Position numbers and translations under genes: made by a program. DNA of 64,000 nt from an uncultured Alphaproteobacteria bacterium (GTDB lineage: Bacteria; Pseudomonadota; Alphaproteobacteria; Rhodobacterales; Rhodobacteraceae), in contig OY969718.1 of the NCBI GenBank assembly GCA_963702145.1, positions 938,247 through 1,002,246 on the forward strand, read 5' to 3'. Of this stretch, positions 48,230 to 51,116 are shown in pieces. Under the pieces are notes generated by a model. The model had not been told where the DNA came from and did not search any database. It was given only the letters and a program-made list of their open reading frames with translations. How positions within the stretch are numbered: the stretch's first letter is position 1; every line of letters starts with the position of its first letter.

Positions 48230-48334
48230 TTTTCCCCGTCCCTATCTATCGGCCCGTGCATGTCGCCCGGGCGGAGGCGGGTTGGCAAGCGCGGGCGGCT
48301 TGCGGGGGGCGGGCATCTGTCGCAAAGCTGCATC

Positions 48335-49333
48335 ATGTCCGCCGCCTATCCCGCTTCCCGCCCGCGCCGCCTGCGCCGAACGCCCGCGCTGCGCGCCCTG
48401 ACCCGCGAGCACCGCCTCTCGACCGACGACCTGATCTGGCCGGTCTTCGTCTGCGAGGGCGACGGCGTGACGCAGGAGGTGCCGTCGATGCCCGGCGTGA
48501 TCCGCCGCTCGGTCGACCTGACGGCGGAGGCGGCGTCCGAGGCGCACGGCATGGGCATCCGGGCGATCTGCCTGTTCCCCTATACCGACCCGTCCCTCAA
48601 GAGCGACGATTGCGCCGAGGCGTGGAACCCCGACAACCTGTCGAACCGGGCGACGCGGGCGATCAAGCGGGCGGTGCCGGAGATCGCGGTGATGACCGAC
48701 ATCGCGCTCGACCCCTACAACGCGCAAGGTCACGACGGGATCGTGCGCGACGGGGTGATCGTCAACGACGAGAGCGTCGTGGCGCTGGTGAAGATGGCGA
48801 TGGCGCAGGCCGAGGCGGGGGCCGACATCCTCGGGCCGTCGGACATGATGGACGGGCGGATCGGCGCGATCCGCAGCGCGCTGGAGGCGGCGGGGCGGAG
48901 CGACGTGACGATCATGTCCTACGCCGCCAAGTACGCCTCGGCCTTCTACGGCCCGTTCCGGGACGCGGTGGGCGCGTCGGGTGCGCTCCGCGGCGACAAG
49001 AAGACCTACCAGCTCGACTTCGCCAATTCCGACGAGGGGCTGCGTTGCGTGGCGCGCGACCTCGACGAGGGGGCGGACATGGTGATGGTCAAGCCCGGCC
49101 TGCCGTATCTCGACCTCTGCCGGCGGGTGAAGGACACTTTCGCCGTGCCCACCTACGCCTATCAGGTCTCGGGCGAATACGCGATGATCCGCGCGGCGGC
49201 GGGCAACGGCTGGATCGACGGCGAGCGGGCGATGATGGAGAGCCTGATGGCCTTCCGCCGGGCAGGCTGCGACGGCGTGCTGACGTATTTCGCGCCCGAG
49301 GCGGCGACGCTCATCCGGGCGGGGTGGGAGTAG
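48335..49333 (+). CDS. hemB: Porphobilinogen synthase
   Basis: RPRRLRR, DIALDPY, PSDMMDGRI, SAFYGPFRDA, MVKPG, YQVSGEYAM. Confidence 0.98.
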   Translation: MSAAYPASRPRRLRRTPALRALTREHRLSTDDLIWPVFVCEGDGVTQEVPSMPGVIRRSVDLTAEAASEAHGMGIRAICLFPYTDPSLKSDDCAEAWNPDNLSNRATRAIKRAVPEIAVMTDIALDPYNAQGHDGIVRDGVIVNDESVVALVKMAMAQAEAGADILGPSDMMDGRIGAIRSALEAAGRSDVTIMSYAAKYASAFYGPFRDAVGASGALRGDKKTYQLDFANSDEGLRCVARDLDEGADMVMVKPGLPYLDLCRRVKDTFAVPTYAYQVSGEYAMIRAAAGNGWIDGERAMMESLMAFRRAGCDGVLTYFAPEAATLIRAGWE

Positions 49334-49391
49334 CGGCCTCCCCCGGGGGGTCGCCGTTGCGCCGTCCGTCGCGGCGCGGCAGGGAGAGGAC

Positions 49392-49760
49392 GTGAAACCG
49401 CGATCCGATACCGCCCGCCTCGCCGCGCTGACGCTCGTGCTCTGCGTGGTGGCGGGCCTGCTGCTGCCGCGCATGGGGGCCGCGCTGGCGGAGGTCGCCG
49501 GGTTCAAGGCGGCCGTGATCTGCCGCGGCGACAGCCTGGCGGTCCTGCATCTGGGATCGGACGGGACGCCGGTCGAGGTCGACCTTCCCGACCACGGACC
49601 CTGCGCGGTACCCGATCTCTTGCGCGAAGTCGTGCCCGCCACGCCGGTCTGGCACCGTCTGGTTCCCGTCGCGCGCCCCGCCGTCGCCACACGCGTCCTG
49701 CCGCCGCTCGCGCGTTGGCACGGTCCGCCGCCGAAGCGGGGCCCGCCCCGGCCCGCCTGA
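49392..49760 (+). CDS. DUF2946-like secreted leader with C-terminal RGPP motif (putative ribosome-arrest peptide)
   Basis: GTG start after GGAGAGG. N-terminal hydrophobic signal, VICRGD...DHGPC, Pro-rich tail ending PPPKRGPPRPA*. Confidence 0.72.
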   Translation: MKPRSDTARLAALTLVLCVVAGLLLPRMGAALAEVAGFKAAVICRGDSLAVLHLGSDGTPVEVDLPDHGPCAVPDLLREVVPATPVWHRLVPVARPAVATRVLPPLARWHGPPPKRGPPRPA

Positions 49761-49805
49761 TCCCCGCCCCGGCGATGCCGGGACCGCCTTCACGACAGAT
49801 CAGGA
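49756..49805 (+). promoter_or_regulatory. Stem-loop able to sequester the PCu(A)C Shine-Dalgarno
   Basis: CCTGATC (49756-49762, contains the leader stop) is the reverse complement of GATCAGG (49798-49804, overlaps the AGGA SD). Inner hairpin CCCGGC-GAT-GCCGGG (49768-49782). Confidence 0.65.
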
Positions 49806-49812
49806 CAAGACC

Positions 49813-50277
49813 ATGAAACGCATCCTATTCCTCGCCGCCCTTCTGGGCGCCCCCGCGCATGCGCATGACTACGCGACCGGCGCGCTCGCCATTGCGCATC
49901 CCTATGCCATCGAGACCGTGGCCAACGCGCCCGTCGGCGGCGGCTACATGACGATCTCCAACACCGGTCCGACCGACGACCGGCTCATCGCGGTCGAGGT
50001 CGCGCCCGACCTGGCCGGGCTCGTGCAACTGCACGAGATGTCGATGGATAACGGGGTGATGCGAATGGGTACTCTGGAGGGGGGCGTCCCGCTTCCGGCA
50101 GGCGAGACGGTCACGCTGGAGCCCGGCGGGCGGCACGTCATGTTCATGCAGCTCGGCACGGGGCTCGCGGCGGGAACCGAGATCCCCGCCACCCTGATCT
50201 TCGAGAAGGCCGGCCCGGTGGACGTCGTCTTCAAGGTCGAGCCACGCGGCGGCGAGGACGGCCATTCCGGGCATTAG
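49813..50277 (+). CDS. Periplasmic copper chaperone PCu(A)C
   Basis: Signal peptide, [40 protein letters not shown], His-rich tail GHSGH. Confidence 0.93.
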
Positions 50278-50312
50278 GTCGTCCGGGCCAGCCTGTCGCC
50301 GGCCCGCATCCG

Positions 50313-50963
50313 TCAGGCGCCGACGCCGATCGGGCAGGTGACGCCGGTGCCGCCGATGCCGCAATAGCCCGCCGGGTTCTTGGACAGGTATTGCTGGTGG
50401 TAGTCCTCGGCGGGGTAGAAGGCCGGGGCGTCGACGATCTCGGTGGTGATCTCGCCGTAGCCGGCGCCCTTCAGGCACGGCTGGAAGGCCTCGCGGCTGG
50501 CCTCGGCGGCGGCCTTCTGCTCGGGCGTGTAGGTGTAGATGCCGGAGCGGTATTGCGTGCCCATGTCGTTGCCCTGGCGCATGCCCTGGGTCGGGTTGTG
50601 GCCTTCCCAGAACGTCCGCAGCAGGTCCTCGTAGGTGATCCGCTCGGGGTCGTAGATCACGCGGACGATCTCGTTGTGCCCGGTTCGGCCGGAGCAGACC
50701 TCCTCGTAGGTCGCGTTCGGCGTGTAGCCGCCGGCATAGCCCACGAGGGTCATGTGCACGCCGGGCAGCTTCCAGAACATGCGCTCCACGCCCCAGAAGC
50801 AGCCCATGCCGAACATCGCTTCCTCCATGCCCGCGGGCAAGTCGTTCGAGAGAGGCGTGCCGTAGACGTGATGCGTTCCGGTCAACGGGATCGGGGTGTC
50901 GCGGCCGGGCAGGGCGTCGTCCTTCGACACCATTTCGGACTTCTTGCGCAGCAGGTTGAACAT
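50313..50963 (-). CDS. msrA: Peptide-methionine (S)-S-oxide reductase MsrA
   Basis: [46 protein letters not shown]. Confidence 0.97.
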
Positions 50964-51116
50964 CGTGTCTCTCCTTGTTGCAGACGAATATAGTCGTCGG
51001 ACAGCCGCCTTACAGGGGTCAGCCGGGGACAGGGCGGCCGATCCGACGTTGAAATCGTCGTGCCCATGGGGGCGCCCGGGGCCGCCCAACTGGAGGCCGG
51101 ACATCGCGCCGTCGAC

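Follow-up and report, generated by a model that had tools for sequence, protein, structure and literature searches.

A conserved CruR/CutF-type leader with a predicted arrest motif precedes the sole PCuAC copper chaperone gene of a Rhodobacteraceae genome

A 64,000-nucleotide stretch of the genome of an uncultured Rhodobacteraceae bacterium (contig OY969718.1, positions 938,247 to 1,002,246 of the forward strand; hereafter the window) carries, directly ahead of a gene for the copper chaperone PCuAC, a small open reading frame (ORF) that the original prediction, made from the nucleotide sequence alone, had read as a secretion- and copper-sensing ribosome-arrest switch. By its sequence, this leader appears to represent not a new kind of switch but a real and conserved member of the published CruR/CutF family. 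In its locus, the tail and spacing resemble those of CruR and the RNA arrangement resembles that of CutF; the metal site is a variant one, and the target is PCuAC. We are largely confident that the locus encodes an arrest-type regulatory leader for PCuAC. We further consider it probable that this Sec-exported arrest peptide gates the only PCuAC gene of the genome post-transcriptionally, through the opening of an RNA helix masking that gene's Shine-Dalgarno (SD) sequence.

PCuAC delivers Cu(I) to cytochrome oxidases. To our knowledge, experimental work exists for no more than two DUF2946 leaders, whose responses run in opposite directions. In CruR, copper releases the stall and the output runs through Rho; in CutF, copper strengthens the stall and the output is the unmasking of an SD. 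Among DUF2946 leaders, arrest at an RAPP motif has been demonstrated for CruR alone (PMC9426467; PMC12992588), with the Pro-Pro pair occupying the P and A sites (PMC12992588). In CutF, a stem-loop in the intergenic region (IGR) covers the cutO SD and is opened by stalling (10.1101/2022.11.11.516240; 10.1101/2025.02.05.636593). The stalling nature that the original prediction ascribed to the RGPP-type motif of the window leader agrees with published work, in which RGPP is the strongest, EF-P-resistant arrest motif and the most avoided tetrapeptide across bacterial proteomes, and in which small secreted ORFs with RAPP or RGPP are enriched upstream of copper genes (PMC12992588).

Results

Family membership and sequence hallmarks of the leader

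The elements that had been claimed for the 122-residue leader, namely the ORF itself, an export signal, the VICRGD cysteine, the DHGPC motif and the RGPP-RPA tail, are all present at the positions originally assigned to them, and the downstream gene encodes a PCu(A)C protein, as had been proposed (Table 1). The leader matches the DUF2946 profile (PF11162) with 16.8 bits and E = 0.012, its residues 10–119 aligning to positions 3–117 of the 117 in the profile. A hidden Markov model (HMM) of 32 CxxC-containing leaders from the same bacterial family matches it with E = 1.1e-12 over residues 8–118, and Cys71 aligns to the second cysteine of the CxxC in this profile. The histidine of another leader with HGPC (L003) aligns to the first.

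An exhaustive phmmer search with the leader yielded 82 cluster representatives, of which 56 were aligned. Five columns are invariant in this alignment: Pro26, Cys44, Cys71, Pro118 and Pro119. A DUF2946 match at E < 0.1 was obtained for 25 of the 56 subfamily representatives, the best at 1.1e-8. Because of homology, motif spacing and position ahead of a copper gene, we place the leader with those of CruR and CutF, a kinship that had already been suspected; as judged from these alignments, it is a divergent DUF2946 member and homologous to the canonical leaders.

Outside the signal region, the two cysteines and the PP, the leader is poorly conserved (mean column identity in the subfamily alignment, 29%). 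The N-terminus reads as a Sec-type signal, with K2, R4 and R9, a hydrophobic stretch at residues 10–25 and ALA/E at 31–34, and the LLP(R/K)xxAxLAE of this region is conserved in the family. The AlphaFold2 (AF2) model of the leader comprises a helix (residues 6–36), a moderately confident β-hairpin (40–54) and coil (62–122); its pTM of 0.36 is too weak for judging a Cys44-Cys71 site. A histidine in place of one cysteine of the CxxC had been pointed out as lacking a characterized parallel. The HGPC motif is indeed there, but the position three residues before the cysteine is variable across 94 related loci (31 have C, 12 each have H or T, and 39 have other residues), and His68 is not a conserved ligand.

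The leader ends in GPPPK-RGPP-RPA-stop, with RGPP three residues ahead of the stop. A terminal R[AG]PP is found in 81 of the 94 related leaders; the motifs are RAPP (42), RGPP (39), RDPP (4), HGPP (3) and a few others, a variety in agreement with the published motif tolerance (PMC12992588). Exactly three residues separate PP from the stop in 64 of these leaders. The gap between Cys71 and Arg116 is 44 residues in the window and 43–46 residues at 89 of the 94 loci, next to a published spacing of 45, within 1–2 residues, between the cysteine motif and the arrest motif of DUF2946 leaders (PMC9426467).

Two stall-prone stretches follow each other at 49725–49748, first a PPP of the CutF type, which is EF-P-sensitive, and then K-RGPP of the CruR type, which is EF-P-resistant. 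The arrangement GPPPxR(G/A)PP recurs within the HGPC subclade. A ribosome paused at the PPP would be too far upstream for touching the helix described below.

A helix across the leader stop codon

The sequence CCTGATC, which spans the leader stop, is the exact reverse complement of GATCAGG, which covers the AGG of the AGGA SD of the PCuAC gene; this pairing and the 6-bp hairpin enclosed by it are present as originally described (Table 1). The proposed structure is included in the minimum free energy (MFE) fold of 49730–49820. Pairing of the SD with the 3′ end of the leader reaches 0.57 compared with 0.02 in shuffled sequences (p = 0.016), and in the folding model the AGG is unpaired in free mRNA with a probability of ~0–0.02.

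Close relatives provided six sequences for comparison, five of them distinct, with leader proteins 72–97% identical. All 13 base pairs of the outer helix and the hairpin are kept in the five distinct sequences. The outer helix shows a single change, C-G to U-G, and the hairpin a single compensatory one, C-G to G-C; the hairpin loop (GAU, GAA or CGC) varies at all three bases while the stem is kept. Identity in these relatives is 88–90% for the IGR, 79–81% for the leader and 82–85% for PCuAC. Being better conserved than the gene on either side, the IGR is under constraint. From these comparisons, an SD-masking helix across the leader stop appears to exist and to be conserved in close relatives. 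A search of Rfam with the element at E ≤ 1 gave no match.

Stop-spanning helices are enriched and covary across the family, with counterparts in about 40% of related loci. Alignment of 41 PCuAC-linked IGRs with MAFFT and RNAalifold gave no consensus structure, the 3′ arms being unaligned, and searches for stop-anchored helices with shuffle and permutation controls were used instead. At 29 of 76 loci, the cognate IGR contains the reverse complement of the final codon and stop, compared with 9.5 ± 2.3 loci when IGRs are swapped among loci (5000 permutations, maximum 19, p ≤ 2e-4). Pairs of leader end and IGR that can be recognized by eye are GTC-TGA/TCAGAC (many loci), ATC-TGA/TCAGAT, GTT-TGA/TCAAAC and GTT-TAA/TTAAAC. 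The complement of ATCTGA occurs in 5 of 7 cognate but only 2 of 69 non-cognate IGRs, and that of GTTTGA in 6 of 7 and 4 of 69, respectively. Stop-anchored helices of at least 7 bp were found at 33 of the 76 loci (5.1 ± 2.0 in shuffles) and those of at least 9 bp at 13 (0.9 in shuffles), and each position of these helices shows several pair types. The mean pairing of the SD with the leader 3′ end is 0.34 compared with 0.13 in shuffles, with p ≤ 0.05 at 20 of the 76 loci. The helix of the window pairs through CC-UGA-UC, and some loci have a two-part helix in which an ACAGGA SD pairs with the second Pro codon and the codon that follows it (CCU-GU).

Two further observations concern the pairing partners. 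CCT encodes the second Pro of the terminal R[AG]PP in 33 of the 94 leaders (L020-L099, L001-L018), compared with 15% of their other Pro codons (Fisher p = 1e-5), and at many loci the arrest codon itself is the anti-SD, through the pairing of CCU-GU with the ACAGGA SD; Pro119 of the window leader is encoded by CCC, not CCT. Three PepSY_TM-linked paralogues from the same genus (L009, L011 and L012) have another helix of 11 positions, CCUGUCUGAAG / CUUCUGACAGG, in which a single U-U mismatch is conserved and which likewise spans the stop and covers a CAGGA SD.

Geometry of the arrested ribosome

Counted from the first base of the P-site codon, with Pro118 in the P-site, the 5′ arm of the window helix occupies +14 to +20. 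The original prediction, that a ribosome stalled at RGPP would melt this arm, holds only in part. The outer 2–3 pairs, those that cover the AGG, are within reach of the arrested ribosome at most; the rest of the arm is beyond it. For a ribosome on the stop codon, the arm lies at +2 to +8 and is covered completely. Across the 33 loci that have a stop-anchored helix, the median start of the 5′ arm is +12, which coincides with the leading edge of the arrested ribosome. At most related loci the start falls between +8 and +13, and no fewer than 3 bp lie inside +15 at 30 of the 33; the window arm is at the far end of the family range. In the folding model, the energy for opening the SD is 4.3–6.0 kcal/mol in free mRNA and 2.0–3.6 kcal/mol with a +15 footprint, a thermodynamic masking of the arrested ribosome that depends on the footprint chosen and cannot settle the mechanism.

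Distribution of the leaders and their targets

One genome was taken per genus for 401 genera of the bacterial family of the window, and leaders are present in 183 of them (~46%); across the class, they occur in 22 of 301 evenly drawn genomes. Close relatives bear the label Jannaschia. The next gene encodes PCuAC at 53 of 97 fetched loci, PepSY_TM at 35 and other proteins at 9, and PCuAC follows 27 of the 31 canonical CxxC leaders of the bacterial family. Because of these counts, we regard the pairing of leader and PCuAC as the rule in this bacterial family, not an oddity. The original prediction had regarded a PCu(A)C target as new, knowing of no characterized case. This novelty is not supported: PCuAC, the commonest target in the bacterial family, is already listed in two surveys among the commonest genes after DUF2946/CutF-like leaders (PMC9426467; 10.1101/2022.11.11.516240), and clusters with mixed Cys/His sites are described in the survey of CutF-like proteins (10.1101/2022.11.11.516240).

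The PepSY_TM gene downstream of one leader (L007; G009:C311) has an in-frame TGA within the conserved YRLIWKWHFLASL motif and is either a pseudogene or the product of an assembly error.

Organization of the locus

The leader and PCuAC genes lie on the same strand, separated by an IGR of 52 nucleotides, and are flanked by hemB upstream and a convergent msrA downstream. The PCuAC gene gave the single match in a search of its own genome. Its product has a Sec signal (...AHA/HDY) and the motif H74-X10-M85-X22-H108-X-M110, as read from the sequence. Beyond this H-X10-M-X22-H-X-M Cu(I) site, the protein has a His-rich C-terminal tail, GGEDGHSGH, that may be a second metal site. The GTG start of the leader corresponds to ATG in a relative with 74% identity (L002).

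The leader-PCuAC pair is kept in relatives, together with the convergent msrA where the contig extends that far. In the window and in L103, hemB lies 5′ of the pair; in L100 (ENA k141_247036), which was compared with window positions 48300–51100, an APH-family gene takes this place. This difference in the upstream gene suggests that leader and PCuAC form a self-contained unit, transcribed from a promoter of its own. Scans for sigma-70 promoters and intrinsic terminators found none, a result that is uninformative for a high-GC alphaproteobacterium. The inner hairpin was considered as an intrinsic terminator and rejected, as it has no U-tract. A GC palindrome, CCCCCGGGGG, likewise without a U-tract, is located at 49340–49349 between the hemB stop (49333) and the ribosome-binding site (RBS) of the leader.

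Table 1. Features of the leader-PCuAC locus (window coordinates; aa, amino acids; nt, nucleotides)
Feature	Position	Strand	Basis or remark
Leader RBS, GGGAGAGG	49382..49389	+	2 nt upstream of the GTG start; read from sequence
Leader ORF, GTG start, 122 aa, divergent DUF2946 (CruR/CutF-like)	49392..49760	+	stop at 49758-49760; PF11162 match and CxxC-leader HMM
Predicted Sec signal peptide, aa 1-33, ...GAALA/E	49392..49490	+	read from sequence, AF2 helix, family conservation
Cys44 codon, in VICRGD (49515-49532)	49521..49523	+	invariant in subfamily
His68-Gly-Pro-Cys71, at the place of the family CxxC; DHGPC at 49590-49604	49593..49604	+	Cys71 invariant, His68 not
Pro112-Pro113-Pro114, second polyproline stretch, directly before K-RGPP	49725..49733	+	sequence
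Arg116-Gly-Pro118-Pro119, predicted arrest motif	49737..49748	+	sequence; P/A-site assignment by analogy with CruR toeprint
Outer helix 5′ arm, CCUGAUC, across the leader stop (49758-49760)	49756..49762	+	folding, relatives
Inner 6-bp GC hairpin, CCCGGC-GAU-GCCGGG	49768..49782	+	arms 49768-49773 and 49777-49782; folding, relatives
Outer helix 3′ arm, GAUCAGG, covering AGG of the PCuAC SD	49798..49804	+	folding, relatives
SD of the PCuAC gene, AGGA	49802..49805	+	7-8 nt upstream of the ATG at 49813
PCuAC copper chaperone gene, 154 aa	49813..50277	+	PF04314, E = 8e-33

Discussion

A model for the control of PCuAC by the leader

We hypothesize that, in free mRNA, the 7-bp helix formed by the last leader codon, the stop and the two next bases with GAUCAGG hides the AGG of the PCuAC SD, and that the inner GC hairpin braces this helix. 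A ribosome translating the leader would arrest at Arg116-Gly-Pro118/Pro119 with Pro118 in the P-site. Its leading edge would then abut the helix and intrude on the outer 2–3 pairs over the AGG, and, on moving on to the stop codon, the ribosome would cover the entire 5′ arm. The longer its dwell at or just past the arrest site, the longer the SD would stay accessible to another ribosome. We give even odds that the leader acts mainly by unmasking the SD.

At arrest, Cys71 (with His68) would be 47 residues and Cys44 74 residues from the peptidyl-transferase center; at these distances both cysteines should have emerged from the exit tunnel, and the binding of metal, thiol chemistry and pulling by Sec could there alter the lifetime of the arrest. 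Following the logic of CruR, low copper would allow a long arrest and PCuAC would be made, and copper or export force would release the arrest, leaving the SD masked again. We favor release by copper because the targets are genes of copper acquisition and delivery (PCuAC, and PepSY_TM, which is also encoded in the CruR operon that copper represses); copper could switch PCuAC expression off rather than on with about the same chance as the reverse. The sequences themselves show the anatomy of the locus, the homology and spacing of the leader, the conservation of the helix and its covariation across the family; that ribosomes arrest here, that PCuAC translation responds, which ligand acts and in which direction are what we infer from them.

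Several observations weigh against this model. The leader departs from DUF2946 on two counts: it falls short of the Pfam gathering score for PF11162 (16.8 vs 23.7 bits) and has H68-G-P-C71 in place of a CxxC. The alignment to DUF2946 is full-length, but its score is under that cut-off; the structure is part of the MFE fold of 49730–49820, but the z-score of this fold against shuffles is –1.15; and the pairs are kept in relatives and covary family-wide, but the covariation in close relatives is not significant, with 106 of 500 shuffles reaching the observed score. There is little covariation among these relatives because the outer helix is almost invariant. Taken alone, the stop-spanning helix of the window is not significant against dinucleotide shuffles of the IGR (p = 0.063). 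Its counterparts are lacking at many PCuAC-linked loci with strong SDs, showing that the element is not universal, and an exact complementary 6-mer is found in the IGR of 0 of 13 leaders ending in GCC-TGA, the class of the window. When the 5′ arm is masked in the folding model, the SD re-pairs weakly with PCuAC codons. With a +12 footprint, the energy for opening the SD is not lowered, so that arrest at RGPP might leave the helix entirely closed. In the literature we found no experimental study of a PCuAC-linked leader.

Alternative explanations

Attenuation of the CruR type would make the helix secondary, for example a pause element: the arrested ribosome would keep Rho off a C-rich site, and its release would lead to Rho termination before or within PCuAC. 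CruR, the sole DUF2946 leader with a demonstrated RAPP arrest, works in this way (PMC9426467; PMC12992588), and the RGPP tail and 44-residue spacing of the window leader are CruR-like, not CutF-like. The RNA from 49574 to ~49960 is also C-rich and G-poor (C/G of 1.3–1.9 in 78-nucleotide windows), but a C-rich coding strand says little about Rho loading when the genome itself is high in GC. The IGR, moreover, is short (52 nucleotides, compared with 162 in CruR) and largely folded, and neither the SD-proximal helix nor its family-wide covariation has an obvious role in a pure Rho model. We regard attenuation as unlikely to be the main output here.

The geometry of the helix also admits a coupling of opposite sign, in which only ribosomes on the stop codon open the helix and arrest at RGPP holds back PCuAC translation. 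A terminating ribosome covers all of the 5′ arm, which lies at +14 to +20 when counted from the arrested P-site; a +12 footprint leaves the opening energy of the SD unchanged or higher; and the tail also has a CutF-like PPP. If sensing were likewise CutF-like, with copper strengthening the arrest, copper would still lower PCuAC under such a coupling. Related loci, however, mostly have the arm start at +8 to +13, with 3 or more bp inside +15 at 30 of 33, which fits opening by the arrested ribosome, and in the precedents of SecM and CutF it is arrest that exposes the SD. On balance, we think a coupling of this sign improbable.

A variant of the arrest model concerns the input. The single-Cys subfamily, with invariant Cys44 and Cys71 and no CxxC, may have a nascent chain that does not use a classical dithiolate copper site. 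A disulfide or a Cu-bridged pair of Cys44 and Cys71 could instead be sensed outside the ribosome and translocon, the pull of folding releasing the RGPP arrest, and the helix would be an undescribed RNA element in hundreds of marine Rhodobacterales. We offer this variant as a speculation that is unlikely to be correct; if true, the switch would inform the sole PCuAC gene of the thiol-redox or Cu(I)/Cu(II) state of the periplasm.

It is very unlikely that the small protein is instead a working periplasmic copper/thiol partner of PCuAC, with a non-regulatory RGPP and helix and ordinary co-expression: its two invariant cysteines, its signal peptide, the moderately confident predicted β-hairpin (40–54) and the constant linkage to copper genes would suit such a role, but only the signal region, the two cysteines and the PP are conserved (mean column identity 29%), residues 62–122 are predicted coil, the most avoided tetrapeptide of bacterial proteomes is of the same R[AG]PP type that is fixed 2–3 residues from the stop in 81 of 94 leaders (PMC12992588), the IGR is more conserved than both genes, and the CutF and CruR proteins are degraded or undetectable according to the papers cited above. 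A substrate for monitoring of the Sec pathway was rejected as an explanation, the downstream gene being PCuAC and not protein-localization machinery.

Implications and comparison with known leaders

If the model of arrest-dependent SD unmasking is true, a leader switch ties the assembly of respiratory enzymes to copper supply at the level of translation, through the sole PCuAC copy of the genome. A PCuAC-linked leader would make a useful third test case, drawn from the most frequent class within a large family of marine bacteria, and the natural covariation of the stop-spanning helix provides ready-made compensatory mutants. Our additions are modest and concern how large the family is among marine Rhodobacterales, the place of PCuAC as its main target, and statistics for a covarying helix across the stop. 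They leave the known picture of how such leaders work unchanged.

Like CruR of Bordetella pertussis (Bp2923; PMC9426467, PMC12992588), the window leader is an exported small ORF at the head of a copper operon, with R-x-P-P three residues ahead of the stop, 44–45 residues from the metal-site cysteine to the arginine and a further cysteine upstream, which is semi-conserved in CruR. The third and last gene of the CruR operon encodes PepSY_TM, the second commonest target of the subfamily of the window (35/97). CruR differs in having CxxC and RAPP, whereas the window leader has HGPC and an RGPP preceded by PPP. Its IGR of 162 nucleotides acts via Rho, in contrast to the 52 nucleotides of the window with an SD-masking helix across the stop, and its next gene encodes a TonB-dependent transporter rather than PCuAC.

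CutF of Rhodobacter capsulatus (cutFOG; 10.1101/2022.11.11.516240 = PMC9973294; 10.1101/2025.02.05.636593), from a related alphaproteobacterial lineage, is likewise a Sec-exported DUF2946 leader with a proline-rich tail containing PPP and a short IGR, in which a stem-loop shields the next SD and the anti-SD lies at the very end of the leader. CutF has a CxxxC, two further cysteines and an EF-P-sensitive stall at PPP, whereas the window leader has a single cysteine at the place of the CxxC and an EF-P-resistant RGPP. Copper strengthens the stall in CutF and turns on a detoxifying multicopper oxidase. The window target is a copper-delivery chaperone, and for this reason we argue that the sign of regulation may be opposite to that of CutF.

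The window leader shares with SecM and ApdA/ApdP (PMC10951233, PMC10951299, PMC7897499) a C-terminal motif of the R-A/G-P-P type, which arrests those proteins at the peptidyl-transferase center, and an N-terminal export signal able to supply a pulling force. In these systems, arrest exposes the RBS of the next gene, as it would in the mechanism proposed here. They differ in what is sensed and controlled: downstream of SecM and ApdA/ApdP lies Sec/YidC machinery and export activity is monitored, whereas the window leader precedes a copper chaperone gene and has conserved cysteines at a fixed distance from its predicted arrest site.

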